From: Arcobacteraceae bacterium
GTDB taxonomy: Bacteria > Campylobacterota > Campylobacteria > Campylobacterales > Arcobacteraceae
Assembly: GCA_963662945.1 (NCBI GenBank)
Contig: OY759974.1
Location: 256,001-320,000, forward strand
DNA length: 64,000 nucleotides
Direction: 5' to 3'
This document shows, piece after piece, positions 521-47,517 of the stretch (its first letter is position 1; each line of letters opens with the position of its first letter). The notes beneath the pieces are model-generated. The model saw nothing but the letters and a program-made list of their open reading frames with translations, was not told where the DNA came from and made no database searches. A program made the position numbers and the translations under genes.

Positions 521-1363
521 TTAAATAAGAGCTTTTAAACTTTTTGCAGTATAAAGTTTCAACTCTTCACTTTTTAAAGATTTTAATTCACTACTAAAAC
601 CATTTTTAGAAAATAGTACAAAACTATCTACAGGAAGTTGTATCTTTGCACAATCTTCTTTAAGTTTTGTAAGAACTGATTTTTTGAGTTTGCCATTTGT
701 ATATTTACAACTTCCAGCTATAATTTTTCCATTGTTTGTTTTAGCAACCAAATCTATTTCAAGAGTATCATCCCAATAACTTCCAAGTTGTGACACTCGC
801 TCTTCATCTTGAAGTTGAGTTTTTATAAACTCTCGACACAGTTGTTCAAAAGTGAACTGGACAAATTCTGTTTTTTTATTTTCATATAAAGTATTAAACT
901 CTTCATAGTTTCCATCTCTTATCCCTTTAAAAATAGGAGAGATAAAAGCAAACCAAAATCGTAAAAATGGTGTTCTAAATATGAGTTTTTTAGCAATATC
1001 AGAATGATTTGACTGATTTGTAAGGTGGCTTAGTGATTTTTCACTTGAAAGTACTTTTGAATCCACAAGCTCCTCAACACACTCCATACCAGTTTTAAAT
1101 GAAACTTCTGCTCGTCTAAAGCTTGAGTTTGTTCTTCTATCTCCTTGTGCTACACCACTTAAAATAGCGTGTAAAAGTGGGTCTGCTGTAGCGATATCTG
1201 CTACTTTATTTCGTAAATATTTATAGTCATCAAGAATAAATTCTTTGATAAGTTCTTCTATTGGGATATTCGTATTTACTTGAACCTCTTCAAGTCCGCC
1301 AAAAACTGCAAAATACTCTACAGCTTGGTGCATATCATTGATATTATTTTTTGTACAAAACAA
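521..1363 (-). CDS. DUF234 domain protein (archaeal-ATPase-associated, PD-(D/E)XK-like C-terminus)
   Basis: Motifs 'PFLRFWFAFI', 'FEQLCRE' and 'YWD..EIDLV..GSCKY'. The true start may lie upstream. Confidence 0.75.
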   Translation of the reverse strand: MFCTKNNINDMHQAVEYFAVFGGLEEVQVNTNIPIEELIKEFILDDYKYLRNKVADIATADPLLHAILSGVAQGDRRTNSSFRRAEVSFKTGMECVEELVDSKVLSSEKSLSHLTNQSNHSDIAKKLIFRTPFLRFWFAFISPIFKGIRDGNYEEFNTLYENKKTEFVQFTFEQLCREFIKTQLQDEERVSQLGSYWDDTLEIDLVAKTNNGKIIAGSCKYTNGKLKKSVLTKLKEDCAKIQLPVDSFVLFSKNGFSSELKSLKSEELKLYTAKSLKALI

Positions 1364-2903: not shown

Positions 2904-5243
2904 ATGAAATTAGCAGATTACGATAGTTTTCCAGATAGATTGCCAATACTTGTAGAGCAATCTATGTTTTTGTATCCATTTATGATCGCGCCAATTTTTA
3001 TTGGAGATGAGCAAAATATTAATGCAGTTGAATATGCAATAAACAATAACAAATTAATAACTGTTGCTGTAAGTAAAGAAAAAACTGCAAATGAATTTTA
3101 TAATGTTGCTGTGGTTGGAAATATTATGAGAAAAATCACTCTACCTGATGGAAGAGTAAAAGTTTTATTTCAAGGATTAGAAAAAGTAGAAATCAAAGAA
3201 GTTGTAAGTGGTTCTCCACTTATTGGTATAGTTGATGTACTCCCAACTCTTCCTTATGATGAAAAAGAGATTCATGCTATACTTGAAGTTTTAAAATCAA
3301 ATATTAATAGACTTTCAAAACTTAATCCAAAATTTCCAGTAGATTTAATTAAAACTATTCAAGAAAGTGCAGACCCTGTAAGGATTGCTGATTTAGTCTC
3401 ATCTGTAATACAAATCTCAAATAAAGATGCTTATGCTTTATTTAAAGAAACAAATATCAGTACAAGACTTTTAGGGATTATTGAACATATTAAACAAGAT
3501 ATAGAAACTTTTAAACTCAAAAATGAAATTAATCAAAAAGTAAATACAAACTTAGACAAACATCAAAAAGATTATGTTTTAAGAGAACAATTAAGAACTA
3601 TACAAAAAGAGTTAGGTGGAGACACAAGTAAAGACAAAGAGATACAAGAGTTTAGAAAAAAACTCAAAGCTCTTAAACCTTTTATGCCAAAAGCTGGATA
3701 CAAAGAAACAAAAAAACAAATTGATAGATTAAGTAGAATACATCCTGATAGTGGTGATGCTTCTACTCTTCAATCTTATATAGAAGCTGTTTTAGAGATA
3801 CCTTTTGGAGAAAAATCTGAAGAAAAATTTGATGCAACTCATGTGGAAGAACAACTTAATATTGATCATTACGCACTAAAAGAACCAAAAGATAGAATTA
3901 TCGAATACTTTGCAGTAAAACAGCTTCTTGAACAAAGAGAAATCAAAACTAGTAAAGACAATAGTACTGTTTTATGTTTTGTAGGACCTCCTGGTGTTGG
4001 TAAAACTTCATTGGCAAATTCAATTGCAAATGCACTTGATAGACCACTTGTAAGAATAGCTTTAGGTGGGATGGAAGATGTAAACGAACTTCGAGGACAT
4101 AGAAGAACATATGTTGGTGCAATGCCAGGACGAATTGTTCATGGATTTACAACAGCAAAAAAAATGAATCCTGTAATAGTTCTAGATGAAATAGATAAAA
4201 TTGGAGCAAATCATAGAGGTGATCCAAGTGCTGTGATGCTAGAGATTCTAGATCCTGAACAAAATCATGCTTTTAGAGACTTATATCTTAACTTTGAGAT
4301 AGATTTGAGTTCATGTATCTTTATAGCAACTGCTAACAATGCTGGTAAAATCCCTGCACCTCTTAGAGATAGAATGGAGTTTATCAATATAAGTAGTTAT
4401 ACACCAAATGAAAAATTTCATATTGCTTCAAATTATTTAATACCACAAGAGTTAAAAAAACATGGTATGAAAAAAACTGAAGTACACTTAAGTGACCCAA
4501 CTATTGAACTTATCATTGAAAAGTTTACAAGAGAAGCAGGTGTAAGAAACTTACGAAGAGTATTTAGTAAACTTTATAGAAAAGCTGCAAAAGAGCTTGT
4601 ATACAATAAAGACTTAAAAAAAGTGACAATTAATACTAAAAATATTGAAGAATATCTAGACAGTCCAGTATTTGAAATAGATCCAGCAGATAAATCAAAT
4701 AGTGTAGGAATAGTAAATGGTCTTGCTTGGACAAGTGTAGGTGGAGATGTTCTTAAAATAGAAGCTGTAAAATTTGCAGGTAAGGGAAACTTATCACTTA
4801 CTGGTAATATGGGTGATGTTATGAAAGAAAGTGCAAGAATTGCACATAGTGTTGTTAAGGGTTTAATCGATAAGAAAAAACTTAAAAATGCTTCTTTTAA
4901 AAACTACGATATACATATGCATATTCCAGAAGGTGCAACTCCAAAAGATGGACCAAGTGCAGGTATTGCTATGAGCTTGGTTATTGCTTCAATTTTATCA
5001 AATCAAAAAGTAGATTCAACTTTAGCTATGACAGGTGAAGTTACCCTGACAGGAAAAGTTCTTCCAATTGGTGGATTAAAAGAGAAACTTATTGCAGCTT
5101 ATAAAGCAAAAATGAAAAAAGTTTTAATTCCAGAAAAGAATTTCAAAAGAGATTTAAAAGATATTCCTGATGAAGTAAAAGAAAATATGGAAATAATAGC
5201 TGTTAAACGAGTTGAAGAGGTACTTGAACACGGTTTAATCTAA
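2904..5243 (+). CDS. lon: ATP-dependent Lon protease
   Basis: Walker A GPPGVGKT, 'RGHRRTYVGAMPG' and catalytic 'PKDGPSAG'. Confidence 0.98.
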   Translation: MKLADYDSFPDRLPILVEQSMFLYPFMIAPIFIGDEQNINAVEYAINNNKLITVAVSKEKTANEFYNVAVVGNIMRKITLPDGRVKVLFQGLEKVEIKEVVSGSPLIGIVDVLPTLPYDEKEIHAILEVLKSNINRLSKLNPKFPVDLIKTIQESADPVRIADLVSSVIQISNKDAYALFKETNISTRLLGIIEHIKQDIETFKLKNEINQKVNTNLDKHQKDYVLREQLRTIQKELGGDTSKDKEIQEFRKKLKALKPFMPKAGYKETKKQIDRLSRIHPDSGDASTLQSYIEAVLEIPFGEKSEEKFDATHVEEQLNIDHYALKEPKDRIIEYFAVKQLLEQREIKTSKDNSTVLCFVGPPGVGKTSLANSIANALDRPLVRIALGGMEDVNELRGHRRTYVGAMPGRIVHGFTTAKKMNPVIVLDEIDKIGANHRGDPSAVMLEILDPEQNHAFRDLYLNFEIDLSSCIFIATANNAGKIPAPLRDRMEFINISSYTPNEKFHIASNYLIPQELKKHGMKKTEVHLSDPTIELIIEKFTREAGVRNLRRVFSKLYRKAAKELVYNKDLKKVTINTKNIEEYLDSPVFEIDPADKSNSVGIVNGLAWTSVGGDVLKIEAVKFAGKGNLSLTGNMGDVMKESARIAHSVVKGLIDKKKLKNASFKNYDIHMHIPEGATPKDGPSAGIAMSLVIASILSNQKVDSTLAMTGEVTLTGKVLPIGGLKEKLIAAYKAKMKKVLIPEKNFKRDLKDIPDEVKENMEIIAVKRVEEVLEHGLI

Positions 5244-5244
5244 T

Positions 5245-5532
5245 ATGGATAGAATAAAAGAAATAAAAAAACTACAAACAGAAGGCTATAAAGTTGAAAG
5301 AAGTCAAAGTGTAGTTTTAAATAATCTTTATGCTATCGTAACAATAGTTACAGTTTGTATCTCTATTATTTTTTATAACATTTATGTTGTCCCTACACAA
5401 AAAGCAAAAGAGCAAAGAGAACTCAAAGCAAAACAGCATCAAGAGTATCTAGATATGAGAGCAAAACAAATTGCTCTTTCCCATAAACTCAATAATCAAA
5501 AGACAAATAAAGAAGTTCAAAATGACAAATAG
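5245..5532 (+). CDS. Hypothetical single-TM protein
   Basis: 95-aa ORF in the operon between lon and the rhomboid gene. Confidence 0.65.
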   Translation: MDRIKEIKKLQTEGYKVERSQSVVLNNLYAIVTIVTVCISIIFYNIYVVPTQKAKEQRELKAKQHQEYLDMRAKQIALSHKLNNQKTNKEVQNDK

Positions 5533-6046
5533 AGTATTTACTGTAACAAATATCATCATACTTGTAAATATTTTTATGTTTATAGTTCAAAACAGTATCC
5601 ATAATGGTATTTTGTATTTTGGATTGAATATTTACTTTTTTAGAAATGAATTATATTATCAACTACTTTCAACTATGTTTGTTCATGGTGGAGTTGCGCA
5701 TATTTTGATGAATATGTTTGTTTTATTTCAATTTGGAAATATTATAGAAAGAGTTATCGGTATACCGAAATATCTCTTTTTATATTTTGTAGGTGGTGTT
5801 TTAACCTCAATTGGAAGTTTAGCTTATATGTATATTACAGGAGATTGGGCAAACTTAGTTGGTGCAAGTGGTGCTATAAGTGTTCTTCTTGGTTGGTTTG
5901 CGCTTAAAGACACATATCAAAGAAAAGGGATAATAGTATGGATACTTCTAATATCTTTTGCACCACTTTTATTGGGTATGCCTGTTGCTTGGTATGCTCA
6001 CCTCATAGGATTTGCTTTAGGATGGGCTTTAGGCTACATTTTATAA
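5522..6046 (+). CDS. Rhomboid intramembrane serine protease (integration target; 3' end supplied by the element)
   Basis: Motifs 'FVHGGVAHILMNM', catalytic GASG and 'AHLIG'. ATG at 5522. Confidence 0.93.
   Translation: MTNRVFTVTNIIILVNIFMFIVQNSIHNGILYFGLNIYFFRNELYYQLLSTMFVHGGVAHILMNMFVLFQFGNIIERVIGIPKYLFLYFVGGVLTSIGSLAYMYITGDWANLVGASGAISVLLGWFALKDTYQRKGIIVWILLISFAPLLLGMPVAWYAHLIGFALGWALGYIL
5949..5964 (+). repeat. attL core TAATATCTTTTGCACC
   Basis: Exact match to 50444-50459. Confidence 0.92.
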
Positions 6047-6084
6047 GCATTTCAGAAGATCAAAAAAAATCTTAAATAATAGTC

Positions 6085-6247
6085 AAATAGGGTTAATTAG
6101 TGCCTATAAGGTACATATAATAGTACATAGTGTATAGTTCTTTTATGAATTTTATGTACCTATCTTATAAAATATGTACCTTTTGTTTTTAATAAAATTT
6201 CATTTTTAACAAAAAACTATGTACTTTTAGTATTTTTAATATGTACC
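6085..6247 (+). repeat. Putative integrase arm-type sites (GTACAT/ATGTAC); 47-bp block 6085-6131 repeated at 50334-50380
   Basis: aaatagggttaattagtg..tagtacatagt occurs at both element ends, and four inverted ATGTAC lie before the integrase start. Confidence 0.7.
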
Positions 6248-6282
6248 TTTTCAAAATTCAACTTAATTTAAAAGGTTTAAAA

Positions 6283-7509
6283 ATGGCAAAATATGCAGGA
6301 ATAAGATCTGAAGTTATGAAGGATGGATCTGTTGCTATAATGGCTCAATTCAAACATTTAGGTGTTAGATATTCAAAAAAAAATCTAACTTCACTTTGGG
6401 GAATAAGAACTGAAAAAAAAGGTTTTGAAAAATTACAAGAAATAAAAGCTGAATTATCAGATAAAAAAGATCCTTTTGCAAGTTCAGCAAGTTCACTAAA
6501 TTTAATTTGGGAAAAAAAACTTGAGAAAAATAGAGCATCAGGTGAATGGGCTAAATCAACTTGTAAAAATTATTCTTATTTTTATAAAACTCATATAAGA
6601 ACTGCAATTGGTCAAAAGAAAATTGAAAGAATAACATATAATGATATTATGAATCTTTTTGATCATTTTAAAGCTAATCAAGCAAGTTCAAAAAATACTC
6701 TTATTGATATATTAAGACCTATTTTTAATGAAGAACAAATAAAAGGAAATATCACTAAAAATATATTTGATCCTATTAAAAAGTTTGTTGAAATTCCTCA
6801 AAAAGCACCTGTGTCTGATAGAACACATTATGAAGATATTGAAATAATTAGAAGAATTTATAATGCAATACCTGATTATAATCAAGCAAGAGTACATAAT
6901 ATTGAGATGCACCAAAACTTTTTATATATGTTGATTCTAAGTTGTCATAGAGTTGGTGAATTAACTAAATTAGAAAAAAAACATTGTAATTTAGAACATA
7001 GAATAATTGTTGCACCTAAAACTATTACTAAATCAAAAAGAGATTATCACTACCCTATTCCTGAAGAATGTATTTCATATATTGAAAATCATAAAGGTGG
7101 GGTTTTATTTCCAATAGCAAGAGGTGGAACATTAAGTAGAATATTTCAAAGAATACTTTTTCAAGCAGGTATTGATACAATTGAAGGTCATACTTTATCA
7201 AATCACTCTGTTAGAGCTATGATGATGAGTATAATGATTAATGATTTGGATATTAAAGAATCAATAGCTCACAATTGTCTTGAACATAAACCTCAAGATA
7301 TGAAGAAACATTATCATAATATTCCATATAGTGTTAAAGCTAAAACATTTAAGCAATATTGGGATTATATTAAAGAAATACCAATTGAAAATGAAGATAA
7401 TAAAAATACTGATGCAAATCTTGATGATTTAAAAGAATTGATCAGTAATTATAAAGAAGGATTATTGACTAAAGAAGAATTTGAAATAGCTAAAAAAATG
7501 ATATTATAA
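6283..7509 (+). CDS. Tyrosine recombinase/integrase with C-terminal SHOCT-like tail
   Basis: Catalytic residues R (CHRVGE), K, HSVR, LEH and HY. Tail reads 'LKELISNYKEGLLTKEEFEIAKKMIL'. Likely ATG at 6283 after AAGG. Confidence 0.9.
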   Translation: MAKYAGIRSEVMKDGSVAIMAQFKHLGVRYSKKNLTSLWGIRTEKKGFEKLQEIKAELSDKKDPFASSASSLNLIWEKKLEKNRASGEWAKSTCKNYSYFYKTHIRTAIGQKKIERITYNDIMNLFDHFKANQASSKNTLIDILRPIFNEEQIKGNITKNIFDPIKKFVEIPQKAPVSDRTHYEDIEIIRRIYNAIPDYNQARVHNIEMHQNFLYMLILSCHRVGELTKLEKKHCNLEHRIIVAPKTITKSKRDYHYPIPEECISYIENHKGGVLFPIARGGTLSRIFQRILFQAGIDTIEGHTLSNHSVRAMMMSIMINDLDIKESIAHNCLEHKPQDMKKHYHNIPYSVKAKTFKQYWDYIKEIPIENEDNKNTDANLDDLKELISNYKEGLLTKEEFEIAKKMIL

Positions 7510-8812: not shown

Positions 8813-8971
8813 ATTTTGTTTCCTTTGTATTATAAAATTTAATTTGAGTTGTTTAACTCTATTGGGTTATAGTATTTCATTAATGATAATTATTAAAAAT
8901 GTGAGTTAATTAGAAAAAAGGCAAAAAAAATCCCCACTTAGTAAAAAGTGAGGATTATATGAGTGATTTAG

Positions 8972-9388
8972 TTATTTGCCAAAAACTATATTAGCAAAAC
9001 TTAATAAGATAAGGTCATAAAAGTTATTTAGTTTTTTAAAAAGAAAATTGAATATATTTGTAATTTTCTTAAATATTGTTATAAGTAATTTAGGATTAGC
9101 AAATAATGCTAAAATAATTGCAAATAAAGGCATATAAGTGATTAAGAAGTTTAAAGTGTTATCAGCAGGTGCAAAACCTTTACCTAATAGATTTCCTAAG
9201 ATATTAAACTCTATAGCACTAATATGTGTAAGTCCTATAGTATTTAAAAATTCTTTTATAGGATTTAAAATAATTGAAAAAATATCATTGTGAATTTCTG
9301 ATTGAATTTTTGCTCCAAATTCTAAAAATTTTGTAAGTAAAAATGAAAATGCTATAATTATAACATTCTTATTAAGGTTTTTAAACAT
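8972..9388 (-). CDS. Hypothetical membrane protein
   Basis: 138-aa hydrophobic ORF with RBS and the TATAAC promoter motif. Confidence 0.6.
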   Translation of the reverse strand: MFKNLNKNVIIIAFSFLLTKFLEFGAKIQSEIHNDIFSIILNPIKEFLNTIGLTHISAIEFNILGNLLGKGFAPADNTLNFLITYMPLFAIILALFANPKLLITIFKKITNIFNFLFKKLNNFYDLILLSFANIVFGK

Positions 9389-9466
9389 AATTTATCCTTT
9401 AAATTTATATTGTTTATTGGTTCTATAACTTTTGTTATATACTTATGAGTTTTATTTCTTGATCAA

Positions 9467-9667
9467 TTAGTTGAAATTAAATTTATTAATTCCAAAATAT
9501 TCATTATATTTCCCATCCTTAGAAGATACAATGTTTCCTTTTCCAAATATTTGTGAAACTCCACTTGTAATTTTACTTTGTTTCTTTTCTGTTAATTGGT
9601 TAATTGTAAATAATATTATTACACTTAATGCAATACTTGTTATTATTAATTTCTTTGATACTTGCAT
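9467..9667 (-). CDS. Small protein with N-terminal TM
   Basis: 66 aa, AAAGGA RBS, TATAAC at 9713-9718. Confidence 0.55.
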   Translation of the reverse strand: MQVSKKLIITSIALSVIILFTINQLTEKKQSKITSGVSQIFGKGNIVSSKDGKYNEYFGINKFNFN

Positions 9668-9948
9668 AATCTGTTTCCTTTGAAGATTGAATTGTATTTT
9701 TTTACTATTTATGTTATATATGCTTTACTAATAAAATTTATTAAATTTGATTTATAAAAAAAGGAATATCCTAAAAGGAATGGATTCACTTTGAAAAGTA
9801 AATGTAAACAAACACACACAAAGAAAACAAAATTAAAAATATTTTTCATCTAATCACCTAATGGGTTATATTATAAAATATGTACAAAAACAAAAAAACC
9901 CCTTAATAGAAGTTATTAAGGGGTTTTTGTTGTATATATGAGCAAATG

Positions 9949-10353
9949 TTATGATGCTAAAAAATAGGTATCTTCATTATATTCTAATTGATCATTTAGA
10001 TCATTTTGTTCTAATAAATAATCTAAACTAAAAATATTTTCATCTTTATAATTATTTGATTCTAATTCATTTGATTCAAATATTACTGTTGAAATATCAA
10101 CACCTTCAAGATTTACATTTGAGAGATCACAACCTTCTAAAATAGTATTATTTAAAGTTGAACCTTTTAAATTTGCTCCTGATAAATTACAATAAGATAA
10201 ATCTGCACCTGTTAAATTACAATTTGATAAATCACAATTTGAAAGATCACTTCCAATAAATTTTGAACCTGTTAGATTTGTGTTTTTAAATGAAGTACCT
10301 CTGAAATTTACACACATAAATTCTTTTTTATTTGTTTTAATATTAATTGACAT
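9949..10353 (-). CDS. Pentapeptide repeat protein with acidic tail
   Basis: Repeats of (S/C/A)(D/N)L(S/T)x. Confidence 0.9.
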   Translation of the reverse strand: MSINIKTNKKEFMCVNFRGTSFKNTNLTGSKFIGSDLSNCDLSNCNLTGADLSYCNLSGANLKGSTLNNTILEGCDLSNVNLEGVDISTVIFESNELESNNYKDENIFSLDYLLEQNDLNDQLEYNEDTYFLAS

Positions 10354-10465
10354 AATTTTGTTTCCTTTGATTTTTTATTTGATCAAATTATTTTGATCTT
10401 ACCTTGTTATAGTATTGAGTAGATAATAATTATTAATATTTTTTATTAAAGAGGTTAAAACCCCT

Positions 10466-11122
10466 TTATTTAGATAATTTTTCTTTTATATTTGATATAT
10501 CATAGTTTTTTATCATTTGATCAGCATTTTTAAAATCATTATCTAATACATAAGATAGCCATTGTTTAAATTTTGGATTATCTTTGTTTGTATTCTTGAA
10601 AAAGTTTTTAGCTACTTTTGAAGATGTATAAGGGTTACTGATACCCATTGAGCTGTAATAAGCCATTTGATCAACTAAATGATTGAATATACTGTTATTT
10701 GCACTTATTTGAGTAGTAAATGTAAAAAATTGATATAAAAGATTAATATCTTTGTTTTTTTGATATTCATTGTAAATATGTTTTACATATAAATTAAAAT
10801 TGATACAAAATTTTTGATCAGAAAAATCTTCTATTATTTTATTCTCATAATTTGATAATGCCATTTCACAATATTTAATATTAGTATTTTTATAATAACT
10901 ATCAATAGAATCAATTTTATTAACAGAATTTTCTAATACTGTAATAAGTGTATTATCAAAATCTTTCAAACTATCTTTGTGATGTTTTTGTTTATTTATA
11001 TCTGTAATTATTAGTGATATTATGATAGAAGTAATTAAGGTAACAAATACAACTTTACTTGTTACAACTTTGAGTGTTTTTTTTATTATGTTGATTATAT
11101 TATTTAATATTTTATCTTGCAT
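10466..11122 (-). CDS. Membrane-anchored member of the element paralog family (copy 2)
   Basis: N-terminal TM, 'YVKHIYNEYQKNKDINLLY' and 'NPKFKQWLSYVLDNDFKNAD'. Likely ATG at 11122. Confidence 0.7.
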   Translation of the reverse strand: MQDKILNNIINIIKKTLKVVTSKVVFVTLITSIIISLIITDINKQKHHKDSLKDFDNTLITVLENSVNKIDSIDSYYKNTNIKYCEMALSNYENKIIEDFSDQKFCINFNLYVKHIYNEYQKNKDINLLYQFFTFTTQISANNSIFNHLVDQMAYYSSMGISNPYTSSKVAKNFFKNTNKDNPKFKQWLSYVLDNDFKNADQMIKNYDISNIKEKLSK

Positions 11123-11235
11123 AATTTTTTCCTTTAAATTTGATTTTAGAAAACTTGTTTCTATAAAATTGTTATAAGAAAAAAACAATAGATCTCATTA
11201 AAAATGAATTACAAAAAAACAGGGAAAAACCCTGA

Positions 11236-11544
11236 TTATATTCCTTCAATATTTATAATTGAAGCACCTTTATTAATATTTGTTAAGTTTGCATTGGTTA
11301 GATTTGTATTTGATAAATCAGTATTTATAATAATTGCACCTGTAAGATTCACCTCTGATAAATTTGCTCCTGATAAATTTGCTCCTGTGAGATTCACATT
11401 TGACATATTTGCTCTTGATAAAATTGCATTTGAAAGGTTTGCCCTTGATAAATTTGAACCTGATAAATTTACATTTGATAAATTTTTAAAACTAAAATCT
11501 TTACCACTTAAATCCATACCACTTAGATCAATAGTTGTTTTCAA
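11236..11544 (-). CDS. Pentapeptide repeat protein
   Basis: ANLSG/VNLTG repeats over almost the whole length. Confidence 0.9.
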   Translation of the reverse strand: MKTTIDLSGMDLSGKDFSFKNLSNVNLSGSNLSRANLSNAILSRANMSNVNLTGANLSGANLSEVNLTGAIIINTDLSNTNLTNANLTNINKGASIINIEGI

Positions 11545-11671
11545 TTGAAATCCTTTATGATAGATTGTTGAACTTAATCAACTATTGTGTTATAAGTAAA
11601 ATTTAGCTTAAAACTGTTTTTAGTTATTTGTGATCAAGTAGTTATATATTTTTTTGATTTTTAAAAGTAAT

Positions 11672-11890
11672 TAAAAAAGGTAAATACCATTTATATATAT
11701 TATTATTACTCTATGTAAATGAAAAACCCAAAAGGTTACAAAAATGCTATGAAGCATTTTTTCCACCATTTGATAAATTTGTTATGGAATAATGAATTGA
11801 TAAGTGTTTTGAACTTTATCTTTATATGTCTTAAATTGATTATTGTATCTTAATAAGAACAATTGAAAATCTTGAAAAGTTTCAACTACA
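11672..11890 (-). repeat. Dispersed structured module, inverted variant B1
   Basis: Largely identical to 30494-30712; contains the AAAAATGCT-n4-AGCATTTTT palindrome. Confidence 0.85.
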
Positions 11891-12401: not shown

Positions 12402-12648
12402 TAAAGTTGTTGAAACTTTTCAAGATTTTTAATTATCCTTGTGAAAAAACTTTATAGTAATTGAGTATCTGAATAAAGTTGTTGGGATAAGCCAATCTAT
12501 TCTATTATCCTTGTGAAGAGAGTATTGCCAAATACTTAAATATTATCATAGAGATATGAAATATTTTTCTGATCAAAAAAACAAACCAAATAATCCTCAA
12601 TGGTGGAAAAAATGCTTCATAGCATTTTTGTAACCTTTGGTTTGTTCT
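12402..12648 (+). repeat. Dispersed structured module A1
   Basis: Near-identical to 16410-16658 and 40378-40565; diverged copy at 28065-28250. Confidence 0.92.
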
Positions 12649-12674
12649 TAATAATAAAAGTATAGACTTCAAAA

Positions 12675-13657
12675 TAATAAACTGAAATATTCAACAAATA
12701 AAATTTAATCAAAATTCAATCAGATTTTCTTTTATAAAAAAATTTTACAACTTTTGGAAACTGGAAAATGCAACAAATGAAATTTCTATGCCTTTTATAT
12801 ACTATTTATTGGGTATGTTCAAAATTATTGCCTTCTCTATCTCAACAAAAGGAAAGTAGTTAAAAAAAAGGTGGTAAAAATATCCAACTTAAATATGAAA
12901 AGGTGGTAAAAATGTCCAACTTAAATTTAACTTAAACTTAATTTATTCAATTTTCTTATGTTTAATAAACTGAAATATTCAACAAATAAAATTTAATCAA
13001 AATTCAATCAGATTTTCTTTTATAAAAAAATTTTACAACTTTTGGAAACTGGAAAATGCAACAAATGAAATTTCTATGCCTTTTATATACTATTTATTGG
13101 GTATGTTCAAAATTATTGCCTTCTCTATCTCAACAAAAGGAAAGTAGTTAAAAAAAAGGTGGTAAAAATATCCAACTTAAATATGAAAAGGTGGTAAAAA
13201 TGTCCAACTTAAATTTAACTTAAACTTAATTTATTCAATTTTCTTATGTTTAATAAACTGAAATATTCAACAAATAAAATTTAATCAAAATTCAATCAGA
13301 TTTTCTTTTATAAAAAAATTTTACAACTTTTGGAAACTGGAAAATGCAACAAATGAAATTTCTATGCCTTTTATATACTATTTATTGGGTATGTTCAAAA
13401 TTATTGCCTTCTCTATCTCAACAAAAGGAAAGTAGTTAAAAAAAAGGTGGTAAAAATATCCAACTTAAATATGAAAAGGTGGTAAAAATGTCCAACTTAA
13501 ATTTAACTTAAACTTAATTTATTCAATTTTCTTATGTTTAATAAACTGAAATATTCAACAAATAAAATTTAATCAAAATTCAATCAGATTTTCTTTTATA
13601 AAAAAATTTTACAACTTTTGGAAACTGGAAAATGCAACAAATGAAATTTCTATGCCT
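12675..13657 (+). repeat. Tandem array, 288-bp unit x ~3.4, each unit with two AAAAGGTGGTAAAAATRTCCAACTTAAAT iteron-like boxes
   Basis: Units start at 12675, 12963, 13251 and 13539 and appear identical. Confidence 0.95.
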
Positions 13658-14020: not shown

Positions 14021-15067
14021 TTGAATAATAAATTTACACATAGTATGAATTGTTTGCTTCCACAAGAACAAAATAGATTTAATAAACCAAATGTATTAAT
14101 TAAGTCACAATTATCACAAGCAATAACTCATAAAGAATCTGAAGTATTTTCAGTATTAGTTAGGATGTTGTTAATAACTGAAAGAAGTAATTTTGATTTA
14201 GTAACTGATTATGATTTAAATTGTGATTATGCAGATATAAATAATTTTATGTCTGATAATCATACATCAAAAGATATTAGAAAAATTCTTGAAAAATTAT
14301 TAAATACAACAATCAGATTTAATTATATACATAATGGTAAATGTAGAATTAGAAATACAAAAATAATTACAGCATATGAAGATAGTAAAGGGAGATATGA
14401 TAAAGCAAGTATCTCATTTGATCATAAACTAATAAAAGTATTAATTGAAAAGGTATATCCATATACAAAATTAAATGAAATTGAGCAATATAAATTATCT
14501 AATATATATTCAACAACTTTTTATGAGTATTTTAAATTAGCTCTTGGTAATAAATTGAGCAATATAAAGTATTTTTCAGAATCAGAATTAAGAAAAAAGT
14601 TTTTTTTAGAAAATAAATACAAAAATATTAAAGAGTTTAATAAGTTTGTAATTAAAAAAGCTTTAACTGAAATAAATAGTCACACATCATTAAATATTGA
14701 ATATAAAGTTGAAAAAGATGAAATATCAAATGAAAGAATATATAAATTTAAAATTGAAGATATTCCTATGACTGAAAATATTTTAAATATTTCAGAATTT
14801 AAAAATCTGATCAAAAATATGTCTAAAAAAAATAGAGAAATTATTTATAAATATAGAAATAATAACTATTATCTTGGTGAACAATTAGACTTTTATGCTA
14901 CAGGAAAAATACTTTGGATTATTGAAAATAGTGATAAAACAACTTCAAAAATTATTGCTACTAAAATTTGGAATAATCTTTATAAAGAATATTTACAAAA
15001 TAGTGAGCAGTTTGCTGAAAAATATTATGATTTATCATATAAAGAATTATTAGAGGATGGAAAATAA
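14021..15067 (+). CDS. Rep_3 (RepB-type) plasmid replication initiator
   Basis: 'KPNVLIKS', 'YTKLN....KLSNIYSTTFYEY' and 'NKYKNIKEFNKFVIKKALTEINSHTSLNI' follow the Rep_3 pattern. Confidence 0.85.
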   Translation: MNNKFTHSMNCLLPQEQNRFNKPNVLIKSQLSQAITHKESEVFSVLVRMLLITERSNFDLVTDYDLNCDYADINNFMSDNHTSKDIRKILEKLLNTTIRFNYIHNGKCRIRNTKIITAYEDSKGRYDKASISFDHKLIKVLIEKVYPYTKLNEIEQYKLSNIYSTTFYEYFKLALGNKLSNIKYFSESELRKKFFLENKYKNIKEFNKFVIKKALTEINSHTSLNIEYKVEKDEISNERIYKFKIEDIPMTENILNISEFKNLIKNMSKKNREIIYKYRNNNYYLGEQLDFYATGKILWIIENSDKTTSKIIATKIWNNLYKEYLQNSEQFAEKYYDLSYKELLEDGK

Positions 15068-16409: not shown

Positions 16410-16658
16410 TAAAGTTATTGAAACTTTTCAAGCTCTTTCATTATCCTTGTGAAAAAAACTTTATAGTAATTGAGTATCTGAATAAAGTTGTTGAAACAAG
16501 CCAAGATTTTTAATTATCCTTGTGAAGAGAGTATTGCCAAATACTTAAATATTATCATAGAGATATGAAATATTTTTCTGATCAAAAAAAACAAACCAAA
16601 TAATCCTCAATGGTGGAAAAAATGCTTCATAGCATTTTTGTAACCTTTGGTTTGTTCT
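16410..16658 (+). repeat. Dispersed structured module A2
   Basis: Matches A1 and A4. Confidence 0.92.
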
Positions 16659-16750
16659 CTTTAAAAATAGTTTTTTAATATTTTTTATTAATTCAATACT
16701 ATAACCCAATAGATCAATTGATCAAATAAAAATACAAAGGAAAACTGGTT

Positions 16751-18920: not shown

Positions 18921-21900
18921 ATGAAAACAATAGCACCAATTAGCAGTTCAACTGCAAGTAAATATTACTATGAAAAAGATCCTATCTTTAATCCTGATGG
19001 TAAAGATCAAGCTAATATTGAATGGTATGGACAAATAGCAAAAGATTTTGGTATTGAAGGCAAAAATATTACAGGAGAAGAAGCTTACAATCTGTTTCAA
19101 GGTAAATCATTAGATGGTGAGGAACAATTATTAGATAGATCAAAATCTATAACAAGTGGTAATGAAAGAGCTGTATTTGATGCAATTTTAGCACCACCAA
19201 AACCTGTTTCAGCATTAGGATTAATGGAAGGTGGTGATAAAAGAATACTTGAACTTCATAAACAAGCTGTAAAAGCTACTATTGAGCATACTGAAAAAAA
19301 TATAATTGCTACAAGAGGTTATATTAAACAAGAAGATGGTTCTACTAAAAGAGAAACATATAAAACAGGTAATGCTTTGATTGCAAGTGTTAGTCATAGC
19401 ACTAATAGAAATAATGATTTGCATATGCACAATCATATGCTTATTTCAAATATGACTTATGATAAAAATACTAATTCTTATAAATCTTTAAATTTGGATT
19501 TTGTAAATGATCCAAAAGAAATGAACTCTGTTTATCAAAGTGAAATGATGAAAGGTATGAGAGAATTAGGTTATCAACTTGAAATTAGAGATAATGGTGC
19601 TTGGAATGTGGTTGGTTTTGATGAAAAAACAATTGAAGCAATGAGTACAAGAAAAGAAGAAATTGTTGATGCTAAATCAAAATTAGATTCTGATAATATT
19701 AATAAAATGACTAATAGAAAATTAGGATATGAAACTAAAAATGATAAAAATCCTAATATTACAGAAAAAGATATTCAAGAAAGAGCAAAAAATCAATTAG
19801 CTTCTGTTGGTACTACTATTCAAGAATTAAAAGAAAATGCTTTAAATCAGGGAAAATATGTTAATTATTTCTCAAGTGCAAAAGAAGTATTAGAATATAC
19901 TGCTGAAAAACTAACTCAATCAGATGCAAGATTTACTGAAAGAGAATTATTGAGTGCTGCTTCAGAAGTTGCACAAGGTGAATTTACTCATAAAGAATTA
20001 AAAAATGAATTAAGTAATGTAAAAAAGATTGGACAAAAAGAAAATAATGAACTTAAAAGATTAGGAACTGATCAAAAAGGTAATGAAGTTTTTACTACTA
20101 AAGAGATGCACCAAATTGAGAAAGAAAATATTCAATCTGTTAAAAATAATATTCAAGTTAATGGAATTATGACTAAGGAACAGGCTGAAGAAGCATATAA
20201 AGATTTTGCTAAAGAATATTTTGAACTTACAAAAGGTCAAAAAGATGCAGGTTTTCAAATATTAACTTCTACTGATCAAATTGGTGCAATTCAAGGTGAT
20301 GCAGGTACAGGTAAAAGTACAATGCTAAAATTTGTTGCTCATGCACTTGAATATCAAAATAGTAATGTTAAAGTTGCAGTTTCATCTTTAAGTAATAAAG
20401 CTGTTGAAGGTGCAAAAGGATTTTCACAAACTAAAGATGGTAAATCTTTTGAAGGTAGAACACTTCATAACTTAACTAAACAAGATGGTTTAAATAACTT
20501 TGTTAAAGGTGATCAAAAAGGACAAACTCAAAGAGTTAAAGATATTTCAAAAAATTTGAATGATATTCATTTATCAACTGGTAGTAAATCATTTAGTAAT
20601 AATAAAGGTTTTTCTATTGATCCAATGAATAAATTCTCAATAAATAGTTTTAAAAATTTTGAAACTTCAAGTAAAAGTTCAAAAACTAATTATCTTACTG
20701 GTTCTACTACTTATAAAAAAATAACAAAAGTTAAATCAGGTGAACATAAAGGTGCAACTAAAAATGAATCAACTACTGTAAATCAAAGTGGAACTTCTAT
20801 TAAATATCAATCAACAATTAAAGCAAATAATGGTGAAGTTTTTAAACAAAAAATTGAAACATTTAGTCCTGTAAAACTTGGTGGTAGAAATGGAAGTCCT
20901 ATTGCTAAGTTGGGTGAAAAAGTTATGTCAAGTTCTCATAGAGAAGTTAAAAATGATAAAGGTTTTTCTAAAGATAATAAATATTCAATTGCTGGAATTA
21001 CTTTTGAACATAAATCTGCACAAACATCTTATGGTGATCAACATAAAATGGGTATGAATATTTTAGGACTTGCTAAAGCTGAAAAAAATATTAGATCAAA
21101 TCAAACAAAAGATGGTTTAAAAGATACTACTGAAACAAAATTTAGTTTAATGGGATTAACTACTAAAAATATAGTTGAAGAAACTTATAATAAACAAGGT
21201 GAATTAACAAGTAAAGTATCAGTTAATGAAAAATCATTTATGGGTATTACTATTGGTAGAACCACTACATTAGATGATAAATCAAAAGATACTCATAATT
21301 ACTCAAAAAATGAAGATAAAATAAATAATCCAAAATTAGTTGATCAAAAAGAAATTTCTAATAAAGATGAAATGAAACAAGAATCAAAAAATATGGATAA
21401 AGATATAAAATCTGATAAAAAAGAAACTGCTTTATTGGTAGTTGATGAAGCAAGTATGATGAGTGCAAAAGATATGAATGTTATTTTTAAAGAAGTTGAA
21501 CAACTTAGTAAAGAGGGTTATAATGTAAGAGTTGAATTAATGGGTGATTCAAAACAATTACAAGCAATTGGTAGTGGTTCTTCATTTGATCAAATTAAAG
21601 AACAATTAGGTGATAAAGTAGCTGAAATGACTGAATCACAAAGACAAAGAAATACAACTGAACAAGGTATTACTAATCCTATTGCTCAAAAAGATATTAA
21701 AACTGCTTTTGATAATATGGAAAAAGCAGGTGCAATTAAAGAAGTTAAAGATCCTGATCAAAGAATTAATGCTGTGGTTGATGCAATTACTAAAAAAGAA
21801 AATGTTGATATTCAAAATTTTAAAGGTGAAACTGAAACTAAAAATATTGATTATAAAAATACAATTGGTTTAGCTTCTACTAACAAAGAAAATCAAGCAA

Positions 21901-22970
21901 TCAATGCAGGTGTTAGAAATGAATTAAAAAATCAAGGTTTAATCAAAAATGAAGTAAAAACTTCAATTAATGTTGGTGTGTTAAAAAATAGTATTAAACA
22001 ATCAAATGCTGTTAATTATGAAAAAGGTATGGAAGTAAAAACTTTTGAAAAAGTTAATGGAATGGCAAAAAATACTAATTATAAAGTAGTTGATATTAAT
22101 AAAAAAAATAATAGTTTAACACTAAAAACAACTGAACCTGATAAAAATGGTAATCATAAATATACTAATGTTAAAACAAAAGATATTGCAGGAAAAGTTA
22201 CTATTTCACAAAAAGAAGAAAGATCTTTTGGTGAAGGTGATAAAATTAGAATTACTGAAACTAATAAAAAAGCAGGTTTAACAAATTCTGATCAAGGAAT
22301 TATCACTAATATGGATCAAAAAAATAAAATTGCTACTATTGATTTTGGTGAAAAAGGAACTAAGCAAGTTGATTTAAAACAACAAAAAGGGATTGAATAT
22401 GGTTATTCAATGACAAATCACTCTGCTCAAGGAATTTCTGTTGATAGAGTTGTTGCAACTTTTGATACTTCAAAAAATGCTCAAATGAATACTATGAATA
22501 GTACATATGTTGCTATGTCAAGACAATCTGCAAAATCAGTTGCAATTACAGATAATAAAGAAAATTTGATGAATCAAGCAAGTAAAGAAGCTAAAAATGT
22601 TAGTACATTAGATAATCTAAAAGATGAAAAATCTAATAATAAAGTTGATCAAAAAACTGAAAATCAATCTAAAGAAAAGAATGATGTTTCAAAAGATAAA
22701 CTTGAAATTGATTCAAATAGTATCAAAGATGAAAAATCTAATAATAAAGTTGATCAAAAAATAGAAGATCAAAAAGATAAATCTGTTGATAAAGATAAAG
22801 TTAATAGAGTTGAAAGACAAACTATTAATGATTTAGGTGATTCAAAAAAATCTAATGATAAATTTAAAGCATTAGATAATATTAAAGATGAAAAATCAAA
22901 TGATATTTCAAAAGATAAATCTGATCAAAAAATTCAATCACCTCAAAAAGATCAAGGTATGTCAAGATAA
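18921..22970 (+). CDS. MOBF (TrwC/TraI-type) relaxase-helicase
   Basis: N-terminal YYY, 'FDAILAPPKPVS', HUH motif 'HSTNRNNDLHMHNH', Walker A QGDAGTGKS, VVDEASM, GDSKQL and 'T.HSAQG'. Confidence 0.95.
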   Translation: MKTIAPISSSTASKYYYEKDPIFNPDGKDQANIEWYGQIAKDFGIEGKNITGEEAYNLFQGKSLDGEEQLLDRSKSITSGNERAVFDAILAPPKPVSALGLMEGGDKRILELHKQAVKATIEHTEKNIIATRGYIKQEDGSTKRETYKTGNALIASVSHSTNRNNDLHMHNHMLISNMTYDKNTNSYKSLNLDFVNDPKEMNSVYQSEMMKGMRELGYQLEIRDNGAWNVVGFDEKTIEAMSTRKEEIVDAKSKLDSDNINKMTNRKLGYETKNDKNPNITEKDIQERAKNQLASVGTTIQELKENALNQGKYVNYFSSAKEVLEYTAEKLTQSDARFTERELLSAASEVAQGEFTHKELKNELSNVKKIGQKENNELKRLGTDQKGNEVFTTKEMHQIEKENIQSVKNNIQVNGIMTKEQAEEAYKDFAKEYFELTKGQKDAGFQILTSTDQIGAIQGDAGTGKSTMLKFVAHALEYQNSNVKVAVSSLSNKAVEGAKGFSQTKDGKSFEGRTLHNLTKQDGLNNFVKGDQKGQTQRVKDISKNLNDIHLSTGSKSFSNNKGFSIDPMNKFSINSFKNFETSSKSSKTNYLTGSTTYKKITKVKSGEHKGATKNESTTVNQSGTSIKYQSTIKANNGEVFKQKIETFSPVKLGGRNGSPIAKLGEKVMSSSHREVKNDKGFSKDNKYSIAGITFEHKSAQTSYGDQHKMGMNILGLAKAEKNIRSNQTKDGLKDTTETKFSLMGLTTKNIVEETYNKQGELTSKVSVNEKSFMGITIGRTTTLDDKSKDTHNYSKNEDKINNPKLVDQKEISNKDEMKQESKNMDKDIKSDKKETALLVVDEASMMSAKDMNVIFKEVEQLSKEGYNVRVELMGDSKQLQAIGSGSSFDQIKEQLGDKVAEMTESQRQRNTTEQGITNPIAQKDIKTAFDNMEKAGAIKEVKDPDQRINAVVDAITKKENVDIQNFKGETETKNIDYKNTIGLASTNKENQAINAGVRNELKNQGLIKNEVKTSINVGVLKNSIKQSNAVNYEKGMEVKTFEKVNGMAKNTNYKVVDINKKNNSLTLKTTEPDKNGNHKYTNVKTKDIAGKVTISQKEERSFGEGDKIRITETNKKAGLTNSDQGIITNMDQKNKIATIDFGEKGTKQVDLKQQKGIEYGYSMTNHSAQGISVDRVVATFDTSKNAQMNTMNSTYVAMSRQSAKSVAITDNKENLMNQASKEAKNVSTLDNLKDEKSNNKVDQKTENQSKEKNDVSKDKLEIDSNSIKDEKSNNKVDQKIEDQKDKSVDKDKVNRVERQTINDLGDSKKSNDKFKALDNIKDEKSNDISKDKSDQKIQSPQKDQGMSR

Positions 22971-27005: not shown

Positions 27006-27518
27006 TTATGCTACTCTGTATATTCTCCCATTATGTAAATCATAATCAAAAGATAAATCACTTGCCATTGCATCAACATCAAGATAGTTTTCTAAATGTG
27101 GTGGTATTTCTCCAAATAAACCTTGATCAATAAATTCCCAAGCTAAATCTTTGAAATTATCATAATCATAAACTTCTAAATCATCAACTTTATTAATTGC
27201 TTCTTCTACTGAATAATTTAAACTATCTGTTAAATATGATAAACTTTCTATCTGATCATCATCTAAATCTAAATTATTATATGTATTAAATACTTCTTCA
27301 ATATTTGAATTTTCTGTAATAATTCCTAAAAAATCATTTTCCCAGTCTGCCATAAATAGTTCTAAATCATCTGAATTAAGTCCATTTAGTCTTTTAGCTT
27401 CTTTTACATACTCATAAATCTCTTCTATATCTGTTTCTTGATCAAACCATTTACATAATAATATTCCTCCATTGTTATATAATTCCCATTCTTCTACTGC
27501 TATACTTAGATTTTCCAT
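27006..27518 (-). CDS. ardA: Antirestriction protein ArdA
   Basis: Very acidic; motifs 'YNNG.L..KW', 'FMADWE' and 'GEIPPHLENYLDVDAMASDL'. Confidence 0.93.
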   Translation of the reverse strand: MENLSIAVEEWELYNNGGILLCKWFDQETDIEEIYEYVKEAKRLNGLNSDDLELFMADWENDFLGIITENSNIEEVFNTYNNLDLDDDQIESLSYLTDSLNYSVEEAINKVDDLEVYDYDNFKDLAWEFIDQGLFGEIPPHLENYLDVDAMASDLSFDYDLHNGRIYRVA

Positions 27519-28066
27519 TGTAATTTCCTTATAAAATGATTTTTCCTTTTAGAAGATTTTTTTAAGAGGGCTTGGAGATTTTTGTAATAACTTTTAATTA
27601 AGTTAAAACAATCCTCACCCTTTTAATCAACTTTCAGGATTTTTCCCCTTAGTTAGTTTCTTCAATCAGGCTTTGAAAATTAAATTGTCATTTTCATAAC
27701 TTAGAATAAAATACAAATTAGTATAATTTTATATTTAGTGTAAGTTTGCAATATGTAAGATTTGAATTGGAAAAGTTTGAAGAAACTCAATAAGATGAAA
27801 AATAAAAGTTGATCAATAAAGGTGATTGGTTTTATTAATGATATGTAATAAAAAGTTATTACCAAAATTTTAGTTTTTTGTGTTTGAATGTAATGAAAAC
27901 TTATATTATTTGATCAAAGTTTAAATGCTAAGTATTTATAATTTATGTTCTTGATCAAATACCTTGAAATTTTTTTGTTTCTTTTTTAAAAGAAATATTC
28001 ATATTTAAAAATATGAATAATGTTTTAATATATAAAAAAGGTAAATACCATTTATATATATTATTA
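27516..28066. promoter_or_regulatory. ~540-bp upstream repeat 1 with a long imperfect hairpin (27578-27868); Frpo/ssi-like single-stranded promoter candidate
   Basis: Nested inverted repeats; homologous to 29990-30527 with compensatory changes. Confidence 0.75.
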
Positions 28067-28250
28067 ATTAAGTATCTGAATAAAGTTGTTGAAACAAGTC
28101 AAGATTTTTAATTATCCTTGTGAAGAGAGTATTGCCAAATACTTAAATATTATCATAGAGATATGAAATATTTTTCTGATCAAAAAAACCATAACAAATA
28201 ATTCAAATGATGAAAAAAATACTTCATAGTATTTTTGTAATCTTTTGTTT
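28065..28250 (+). repeat. Dispersed structured module A3 (diverged)
   Basis: Palindrome variant AAAAATACT-TCAT-AGTATTTTT. Confidence 0.85.
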
Positions 28251-28327
28251 AATTACCTTTCAAATAATAATGGATTTTTTCAAGGTCTTTATTGACTTTA
28301 TCCATTGCACCTAATAGTGCTTCATTT

Positions 28328-29992: not shown

Positions 29993-30527
29993 TGTAATTT
30001 CCTTTTAAAAATGTTTTACCTTTTTTGAAGATTTTAAGAGGGTTTTGGATGATTTGTTTAAACTTTTAATTAAGTCAAAACATATCCCCTCTTTTTCTTA
30101 CTTCAAGGTTTTACCTCTTCAGTTAGTTTCAATCAGGCTTTGAAAATTAAATAGTCAATTTCATAACTTAGAATAAAATATAAATTAGAATAATTTTATT
30201 TATAGTATAAGTTTGTAAGGTGTAAGATTTGAATTGGAAAAGTTTGAAACTCACTTAGAGTTAAAATGTAGTAAGAATAAAAGAGATATATGTTTTCTTA
30301 ATGGTATGTAATAAAAAGTTTAAATTAATCACTGTTTATTGTGTTTGAATGTAATGAAAACTTATATTATTTGATCAAAGTTTAAATGCTAAGTATTTAT
30401 AATTTATGTTCTTGATAAAATACCTTGAAATTTTTTGTTTCTTTTACAAAAGAAATATTCATATTTAAAAAATATGAATAATGTTTTAATATATAAAAAA
30501 GGTAAATACCATTTATATATATTATTA
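29990..30527. promoter_or_regulatory. ~540-bp upstream repeat 2 with a long imperfect hairpin (30050-30331)
   Basis: Homolog of 27516-28066. Confidence 0.75.
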
Positions 30528-30712
30528 TTACTCTATGTAAATGAAAAACACAAAAGGTTACAAAAATGCTATGAAGCATTTTTTCCACCATTTGATAAAT
30601 TTGTTATGGAATAATGAATTGATAAGTGTTTTGAACTTTATCTTTATATTCTTTCAACTGTAAAGTTTTTTTCATAAGGATAATTAAAGAGCTTGAAAAG
30701 TTTCAATAACTT
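30494..30712 (-). repeat. Dispersed structured module, inverted variant B2
   Basis: Matches B1; its distal part is the reverse complement of the start of A2. Confidence 0.85.
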
Positions 30713-39618: not shown

Positions 39619-40287
39619 ATGAAAAAAATAATAAAAACAAAAGAAGAATTAAGAGATTTAATTTTAAGTGATGAACTTAATAATAATACATTGAATGACT
39701 ATGATTATAGTTCTATTACTGATATGAGTTTTATGTTTGCAGGTTGTAAAAATTTAACTACTATTCCAAAACTTGACACATCAAATGTAATTAATATGAG
39801 TTATATGTTTGCAAATTGTCATAGTTTAACAGAGATTCCAAAATTTGACACATCAAATGTCTCTTATATGGGTTTTATGTTTAAAGGTTGTAAAAATTTA
39901 ACTACTATCCCACAATTTGACACATCAAATGTAATTAATATGGGTTTTATGTTTTACAATTGTGAAAGTTTAACTACTATTCCAAAATTTGACACATCAA
40001 ATGTTGAATATATGAGTTATATGTTTTCAGATTGTGAAAGTTTAACAACTATCCCACAATTTGACACATCAAATGTCTTTGATATGAGTTTTATGTTTTC
40101 AGGTTGTAAAAGTTTAACAACTATCCCAAAACTTGACACATCAAATGTTGAAGATATGAGTTTTATGTTTTCAGATTGTGAAAGTTTAACTACTATCCCA
40201 CAATTTGACACATCAAATGTTGAAGATATGAGGTATATGTTTGAAGGTTGTCTTAGTTTGAAATCTATCCCACAATTTGACAATTAA
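39619..40287 (+). CDS. BspA/DUF285-type repeat protein
   Basis: ~8 tandem 23-aa repeats 'MSFMFSGCKSLTTIPKLDTSNV' (69-bp DNA period); no signal peptide. Confidence 0.9.
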   Translation: MKKIIKTKEELRDLILSDELNNNTLNDYDYSSITDMSFMFAGCKNLTTIPKLDTSNVINMSYMFANCHSLTEIPKFDTSNVSYMGFMFKGCKNLTTIPQFDTSNVINMGFMFYNCESLTTIPKFDTSNVEYMSYMFSDCESLTTIPQFDTSNVFDMSFMFSGCKSLTTIPKLDTSNVEDMSFMFSDCESLTTIPQFDTSNVEDMRYMFEGCLSLKSIPQFDN

Positions 40288-40377
40288 GGAAAAAATTTGA
40301 ATTAAAATTTGGGAAGATGAATGGTGTAGAGATATGGGTGAAAGTGAAGAATGTAATTATGGATAACAGTATTACAA

Positions 40378-40565
40378 TAATTGAGTATCTGAATAAAGTT
40401 GTTGGGATAAGCCAATCTATTCTATTATCCTTGTGAAGAGAGTATTGCCAAATACTTAAATATTATCATAGAGATATGAAATATTTTTCTGATCAAAAAA
40501 ACAAACCAAATAATCCTCAATGGTGGAAAAAATGCTTCATAGCATTTTTGTAACCTTTGGTTTGT
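40378..40565 (+). repeat. Dispersed structured module A4
   Basis: Appears identical to 12458-12645. Confidence 0.92.
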
Positions 40566-40662
40566 GATAGATAATTTAAAGATAGAAAAGGTAAATACCA
40601 TTTATATATATTAATATATATATGGTTTTTTAAAACAAATTAAAATTTAAAGGAAACAGATT

Positions 40663-42545: not shown

Positions 42546-42638
42546 AATTAGGGTTACTGATTTATAACTACTGAACTACATAGATTTATTTTAATTTAGA
42601 TAGAATAGTAACTATTTATAAAAATAGGTATTATTAAA

Positions 42639-47514: not shown

Positions 47515-47517
47515 TAA

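Follow-up and report, generated by a model that had tools for sequence, protein, structure and literature searches.

The locus lies in the window, by which we mean the whole 64-kb stretch of DNA that was analysed. It consists of a rhomboid protease gene, an island of ~44.5 kb that begins within the 3' end of this gene and, at the far side of the island, a second copy of the gene's end that meets a convergent flavin amine oxidase gene. The following features mark the two junctions:

5522 to 6046, plus strand: rhomboid protease gene (174 aa; Pfam Rhomboid, E 3.5e-22) of chimeric make-up, its final 27 codons plus stop being read as element-derived
5949 to 5964, plus strand: attL core, the same 16 bp as the attR core; the crossover is placed here, and the same gene position is used in genomes G170 and G157
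5965 to 6046, plus strand: element-borne replacement rhomboid tail, including the presumed catalytic His codon at 5999 to 6001; 21 nt and 4 aa off the native tail, and missing at empty sites
50444 to 50459, plus strand: attR core, the same 16 bp as the attL core
50460 to 50541, plus strand: displaced native rhomboid tail, intact and severed from its gene; 97% identical in nucleotides and identical in protein to the tail of genome G009, and equal to the empty-site tail of run X17 at the listed positions
50538 to 51536, minus strand: convergent flavin amine oxidase gene (Pfam Amino_oxidase, E 3.1e-31), its stop overlapping the native rhomboid stop

A preliminary description of this DNA stated that attL and attR have only 16 bp in common and that both continue as the last 31 codons of the rhomboid, and sequence comparison confirmed this. 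The block TAATATCTTTTGCACC is identical at 5949-5964 and 50444-50459, and within the 64-kb window the identity extends over exactly 16 bp. The left tail (5951-6046) forms the end of the rhomboid ORF on the plus strand (5522-6046), while a six-frame scan revealed the right tail (50446-50541) as a second copy of the last 31 rhomboid codons. On the 5' side of the core the left and right sequences are unrelated. On its 3' side 21 of 96 nt and 4 of 31 residues differ, with a synonymous change in 11 codons, in agreement with the four amino acid differences and many synonymous changes reported earlier. The left peptide reads ISFAPLLLGMPVAWYAHLIGFALGWALGYIL and the right one ISFAPLLLGMPIAWYSHLIGFALGWVMGYIL, with the changes V/I, A/S, A/V and L/M. 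In a whole-genome search the right tail matched the rhomboid protein with an E of 3.6e-14, so the likeness of the tails is not due to chance; at the DNA level the two tails match each other with an E of 8e-16. They are the only two tail copies in the whole genome (G000). The right-tail TAA (50539-50541) shares 2 nt with the stop codon at 50538-50540 (minus strand) that ends the convergent ORF 50538-51536, an overlap already noted in the preliminary description. A putative inverted repeat, AAGTGG...CCACTT, was spotted by eye around the core in the inferred attP.

The 174-aa ORF matches the Pfam Rhomboid family to its final residue. Ser116 (GASGA) aligns with S116, and His160 (AHLIG) with H169, of Haemophilus influenzae GlpG (2nr9), residues that we take to be the catalytic dyad of that protein; a Ser in the GxSG of helix 4 and a His in helix 6 presumably make up the rhomboid dyad in general. 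As His160 is aligned to H169, the swapped segment contains the catalytic His. The alignment to 2nr9 thus agrees with the earlier placement of this residue in the swapped helix.

Between the tail copies the island extends from about 5965 to 50443. We scanned its 41 ORFs of at least 80 aa against Pfam, and its main genes are the following:

14021 to 15067, plus strand: Rep3-like initiator (Pfam Rep3_C, 1.5e-10)
18921 to 22970, plus strand: TrwC-type relaxase-helicase, 1349 aa (Pfam TrwC, 1.4e-47; AAA_30, 1.5e-29)
27006 to 27518, minus strand: ArdA anti-restriction protein (Pfam ArdA, 1.1e-14)
32224 to 34122, minus strand: type IV coupling protein (Pfam TrwB_AAD_bind, 8.6e-68)
41955 to 42545, plus strand: conserved element ORF, with homologues just before attR in G170 and G157
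42639 to 48990, plus strand: type I restriction-modification (R-M) cassette comprising hsdR, hsdS, one unknown ORF and hsdM (Pfam ResIII/EcoEI_R_C, Methylase_S and N6_Mtase)

The island also encodes an ArdC-N protein, an MjaI-like endonuclease and a methylase, and its GC content is 20-26% versus 26-30% in four flank-only windows. A relaxase and a coupling protein are both present (TrwC, 1.4e-47; TrwB_AAD_bind, 8.6e-68). No VirB4-family match was found among the 41 island ORFs of at least 80 aa, and PF03135 (VirB4) had no match anywhere in the 2.5-Mb genome. With this relaxase and coupling-protein gene set and VirB4 not found, the island reads, from its gene content, as an integrative mobilizable element (IME). 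Directly upstream of the Rep3-like initiator gene, a 288-bp unit is present in three to four perfect tandem copies (12675-13657), which may be iteron-like or origin repeats.

The island is rich in other repeats as well. A family of ~215 nt has four island copies (12452-12666, 16461-16675, 28059-28273 and 40372-40586) that are 73-95% identical, and there are more repeat pairs, for example 11672-11838 with 30494-30660 (96% identity). A DUF285 protein (Mycoplasma-type leucine-rich) at 39619-40287, also within the island, is built of eight 72-nt tandem repeats. In the R-M cassette, hsdR (window 42638-43729) is 85% identical in nucleotides to a gene of G170 (L022, 3143-4234). Its placement is the opposite in the two genomes, adjoining attR in G000 and the integrase in G170, and the cassette apparently travels as a module of cargo.

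Next to the left tail lies a gene for a predicted tyrosine integrase, and the DNA at both ends of the island carries a short repeat:

6047 to 6282, plus strand: P' arm with six (A/G)GTACATA repeats, at 6110, 6122, 6153, 6173, 6218 and 6240
6283 to 7509, plus strand: predicted tyrosine integrase, 408 aa, starting 237 nt past the left-tail stop
50335 to 50443, plus strand: P arm with two (A/G)GTACATA sites, at 50359 and 50371

The integrase matches the Pfam family Phage_integrase (PF00589) with an E of 1.8e-5 and 25.1 bits, the cut-off being 27.1; its homologue in G200 (52% identity) reaches 37.7 bits for the same family, above the cut-off. In an alignment of six integrase sequences (alignment A2), R223, K250, H308, R311, H335 and Y344 are invariant, and we take these six residues to be the tyrosine recombinase catalytic motif R..K..HxxR..H/W..Y. 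The 8-mer GGTACATA occurs five times in the 64-kb window, each time within the 612 nt of arm DNA next to the cores: four copies separate the left tail from the integrase gene, and the fifth precedes the right core. Counting the AGTACATA variant as well brings the number to six in P' and two in P. Two arm sites of each arm lie inside a direct repeat of ~50 bp (6086-6135 and 50335-50385). A comparable repeat, GG(G/T)GTATAAAAAAGTGT, is present in each arm of the G170 element. By analogy with those of lambda, the (A/G)GTACATA repeats are probably arm-type integrase binding sites.

We further noticed that the C-terminus of the integrase (residues 379-408; window 7420-7509), which is EGLLTKEEFEIAKKMIL-like, matches the metagenome loci L080-L082 with 60% identity. 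These loci are otherwise unrelated. The C-terminal ~30 residues constitute a short, separately distributed module, which we presume to be akin to the SHOCT domain.

The integrase was searched in 184 genomes of the family at an E of 1e-10 or better, which returned 26 loci in 20 genomes. A rhomboid ORF ended just upstream of the integrase at the locus itself and at three non-self loci with 50-56% identity; at the other 22 loci (identity at most 48%) no rhomboid lay directly upstream, the upstream sequence being short at some of them. In a GTDB scan with one genome per species, the single integrase protein found no relative. With alignment A2 the same scan gave 10 loci, recorded as Arcobacter, Aliarcobacter and related Campylobacterota: four with a rhomboid, namely the two ends of one G200 contig (52%) and the G157 and G003 records again, and six (38-43%) without. 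A metagenome scan with A2 yielded one true relative, L079 (40%), whose 709 nt of upstream sequence encode no rhomboid in the forward-strand frames, while three further matches cover the C-terminal 30 residues only. The search for related integrases beside rhomboid genes, which the preliminary description had proposed, therefore found them so placed in G170 (51%), G157 (50%), G003 (a fragment, 56%) and G200 (52%), with identities of 49-58% overall.

Two of these loci show both ends of an element. On a 210-kb contig of G170 a complete rhomboid is followed by the integrase and, 18.3 kb downstream, by a second tail, and on contig C138 of G157 two tails are found 8.2 kb apart. The junction falls at the same codons, L-I-S-F/V-A-P, in all three genomes: TAATATCTTTTGCACC in G000, TAATCTC[A/T]GTTGCACC in G170 and TAAT[T/A]AGTTTTGCACC in G157. 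From the single core mismatch in G157 and G170, which segregates as if the exchange took place in the left part of the block, we infer that the crossover lies there. No attR was found for G003, whose contig ends, or for G200, which has no second tail, and the tails of these two genomes are therefore called element-borne from position alone.

Some contigs need to be read with care. Those of G157 are fragments, one of them with a chimeric end: positions 1-145 of C138 (L078) are GC-rich, unlike the AT-rich remainder, a contrast suggesting that the contig is chimeric at this end, where the rhomboid junction lies. Contig C166 of the same genome, with a full rhomboid and a native-type tail 97% identical to the attR tail of C138, was considered as an empty form from the same sample. 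It was not used as such, as its downstream sequence departs 15 nt past the stop and the left 145 nt of C138 are GC-rich and foreign. The G200 contig C20 (L075/L076) is a 22,319-nt contig of a single-cell assembly recorded as an alphaproteobacterium, and the rhomboid tail of G200 is 91-92% identical to those of G003 and G016, which belong to the same genus.

In G016 (contig C21, L048) an intact rhomboid is followed by one Fic/DOC gene (746-1297, minus strand; Pfam 1.5e-11) and then by a truncated second tail, about 830 bp downstream, with an in-frame TGA. The tail of the intact gene is 89-91% identical to the tails beside the G003 and G200 integrases. This locus looks like a decayed element whose tail was left in the gene. 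Among the more distant integrases is a clade with 41-44% identity, two members of which, from different genera (L024 in G066 and L025 in G190), immediately follow a MutS-domain-V plus HNH gene; others in this clade are preceded by a C-5 methylase, an SPL-like or an MCP gene. It may be that each sister clade of integrases has a protein-coding gene of its own whose 3' end it targets.

Unoccupied sites were found in two sister species and in one sequencing run, and in all three (G006, G009 and X17) the rhomboid is a single contiguous gene. In G006 the flanks abut over one tail, L002 matching window 53036-50446 and 6045-4454 with a 95-nt overlap. In G009 there is no amine oxidase gene, and an aldo-keto reductase gene comes immediately after the rhomboid; the tail of this rhomboid matches the right copy with 94% identity in blastn (97% over the 96 nt) and encodes the same peptide. 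Both empty-site tails are of the PIAWYSH type. A 20,353-nt contig of run X17 spans window 3000-6047 and departs from it at exactly 21 letters. Of these differences, the 13 listed (5965, 5968, 5969, 5971, 5974, 5977, 5984, 5986, 5996, 5998, 6004, 6010 and 6017) are all positions at which the left and right tails differ, and X17 has the right-tail letter at each; the island bins have almost no depth in this run. Sequence to the right of 5964 is missing from the empty sites. The same attL is found in run X16, a further sample of organism B, together with a variant of the island in which 2.8 kb with pentapeptide-repeat genes (window 8899-11731) are replaced by 23 other letters.

Because the empty sites of G006, G009 and X17 all carry a right-type tail, the right tail is the native one, as had been proposed from the overlap of the two stops. 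The comparison with empty-site relatives, also put forward at that stage, thus returned the right tail, and the left tail was not seen as the native allele in any of them. The site being empty with a right tail in X17 and occupied with the same attL in X16, the left tail belongs to the element. With X17 unoccupied in an otherwise identical flank and X16 occupied, the presence of the island varies among very close relatives.

We consider it highly probable that the locus represents a ~44.5-kb IME integrated by site-specific recombination of a tyrosine recombinase into the 3' end of the rhomboid gene, with a tail of its own that keeps the ORF open. The earlier reading of an attL/attR pair whose left tail was brought in by the element, leaving the rhomboid frame open, holds in this respect. 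Crossover would occur within the 16-bp core TAATATCTTTTGCACC, which encodes L-I-S-F-A-P, with the integrase presumably bound to the (A/G)GTACATA arm repeats. Right after the core, attP would carry its own divergent version of the gene's final 27 codons with their stop, a stretch corresponding to transmembrane helix 6 with the catalytic His. As attP brings these codons, the rhomboid ORF would be completed by element DNA at attL, while the native tail would be stranded at attR against the amine oxidase gene. The tail may be kept intact through selection against elements that break the rhomboid. The element would still excise, and a helper conjugative system could mobilize it via its own relaxase and coupling protein.

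Neither a circular attP nor an excised attB was seen in the assembled contigs (Logan) of public runs, which drop rare forms. Run X1 gave only a few short pieces of 151-230 nt, all inside the island. A joint in X13 that goes back from 6131 to 5949 (183) was considered as a circle and rejected: it carries the 21 right-tail differences, and thus represents attR placed on attL. Contig C20 of G200 ends in an exact terminal repeat of 1,643 bp (FliN, the full rhomboid and the start of the integrase), and it also carries a 3134-aa protein. The contig was rejected as evidence of an excised circle on account of its chromosomal genes FliN, GlmS and FlgI and the lack of a second tail, and it is probably an assembly or amplification artefact. 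No excisionase was recognised; the candidate, ORF 41955-42545, matched no Pfam family even at an E of up to 1. It has a counterpart in G170 (tblastn, 47% over 94 aa, E 1e-26) and a homologue in G157 (L078, 7823-8278), and its position lets us guess at a candidate directionality factor (Xis).

These observations could also be read to mean that the island is a fixed, immobile remnant and the duplicated tail the fossil of one old integration. Neither a circle nor an excision product was seen in contigs, an excisionase was not recognised, and decay has a precedent in G016 with its intact rhomboid, Fic-family gene and truncated tail with an in-frame TGA. This reading is rather unlikely, however, in view of the state of the element: the conserved integrase ORF has its full length, neither core contains a mismatch, and the displaced native tail shows no decay, encoding the same peptide as the tail of G009. 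Moreover, presence varies within the species, X17 being without the island and X16 with it.

The preliminary description had attributed to the element a protein-coding attP under purifying selection, which the substitution pattern in the tails bears out (Nei-Gojobori method, Fisher test). Between the element tail and the native tail of G000, dS is 1.25 and dN 0.11 (p 6e-6), with changes at 13.5 of 22.2 synonymous and 7.5 of 70.8 non-synonymous sites, giving a dN/dS of about 0.09. Between the element tail of G000 and that of G003, the latter assigned to an element by its position, dS is 1.63 and dN 0.12 (p 5e-7), that is, a dN/dS of about 0.07. The tails of G003 and G200 are closer to each other (dS 0.36, dN 0.01, p 2e-4). 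The element tail is 68-80% identical to each of 18 other tails, which indicates an old, separate lineage whose shape has been kept at the protein level. The 3' end had previously been called 'recoded'. Its sequence does differ, but the divergence is simply of the size seen between species, given the 68-80% identity of the left tail to all the others.

It had also been proposed that an SH-to-AH swap toggles between protease alleles. This was not borne out, both forms being ordinary alleles of the genus: of the 18 other genus tails, 10 have Ala and 8 have Ser in front of the His. In the same 18 tails, position 12 is Val in 4 and Ile in 14, and position 27 is Leu in 4; Ala at position 26 occurs in none (0/18) and is unique to the element tail. 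With A/S, V/I and L/M all natural alleles in the genus, the swap lies almost wholly inside natural variation, and the four conservative residue changes are most likely neutral. We give only a small chance to the element's helix 6 being non-neutral and changing membrane proteolysis, with decayed elements leaving their tails behind (compare G016). If this were true, islands would be a recurrent source of mosaic alleles in the active-site helix of a protease across Arcobacter-like bacteria.

A functional toggle, in which the element's helix 6 (Ala for Ser by the His, GWALG for GWVMG) alters activity or specificity and integration and excision switch phenotypes, is very unlikely. Such a switch would fit the location of the catalytic His in the swapped segment and the Ala at position 26 found in no other tail. 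However, all four changes are conservative, with A/S, V/I at position 12 and L/M at position 27 being natural alleles of the genus, and the low dN/dS indicates that function is conserved rather than changed. That the left tail is native, the right copy being a gene fragment on the element's far end or an unrelated duplication, has nothing in its favour beyond the symmetry of the two copies and can safely be dismissed, as the empty sites of G006, G009 and X17 are all right-type, the right-tail stop overlaps that of the amine oxidase gene on the chromosome, and none of the 18 other tails exceeds 80% identity to the left one.

Integration of a mobilizable element with restoration of the rhomboid reading frame can be compared with several known systems. 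In islands and prophages that target tRNA genes, attP carries the 3' part of the target from the crossover on, so that the gene is restored, and the duplicated part is usually identical. Unlike in these elements, the rhomboid tail is identical over 16 bp only and the remainder is conserved at the protein level. Protein-coding targets are known as well: the lambdoid phage 21 integrates in icd, as does the element e14. In Escherichia coli K-12, according to PMC13626634, icd runs into the e14 prophage and the C-terminal icdC lies at its other end. The same source, citing Hill, Gray & Brody 1989, describes how excision of e14 reunites icd with icdC, which brings a few conservative and synonymous changes. 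Features of the e14/icd type are present here, too, with an insertion in the coding region that leaves an open ORF and a native end behind the core at the opposite junction. Both cases involve an element with a tyrosine recombinase (a predicted one here) within the coding 3' part of a gene, an alternative 3' end supplied by the element and the native end at its far side. In contrast to e14, the target is a membrane rhomboid protease, the element is a mobilizable island rather than a defective prophage, and the host is an Arcobacter-like bacterium. Excision has been demonstrated for e14, whereas the rhomboid island is known here from sequence alone.

A second parallel is provided by the dusA islands (Farrugia et al. 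2015; PMC4482086). There, a dedicated integrase family is tied to dusA across many genomes, the islands replace the 5' end of the gene and their excision was shown by PCR. The rhomboid system resembles these islands in having a dedicated integrase clade for one protein-coding gene, and differs in that the 3' end is replaced here and the 5' end in dusA. SGI1-type IMEs at the 3' end of trmE rely on helper conjugative plasmids, as stated in PMC8409611. They share with the rhomboid island the location of an IME at the 3' end of a housekeeping gene, while the target gene and the set of relaxase and coupling protein differ. The novelty that the preliminary description had implied for the arrangement is thus not supported: the arrangement is classical, as in e14/icd (PMC13626634) and the dusA islands (PMC4482086). 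In a literature search of limited coverage, no paper was found that reports a rhomboid gene as an integration target. The target gene and the integrase clade are what is new here; the kind of system was already known.

The finding reveals no new principle, restoration of the target being a well-known trick of integrating elements. It does provide a clean and well-bounded case in which one integrase clade is specialised for a protein-coding target, here the 3' end of a rhomboid protease gene. The limits of a mobilizable island with anti-restriction and R-M cargo are defined, and a new site-specific integrase of Campylobacterota is described together with its attB, attP core and candidate arm sites, a set that could be used as a genetic tool. 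The case also presents an att site held together by selection at the protein level with only 16 nt of identity.
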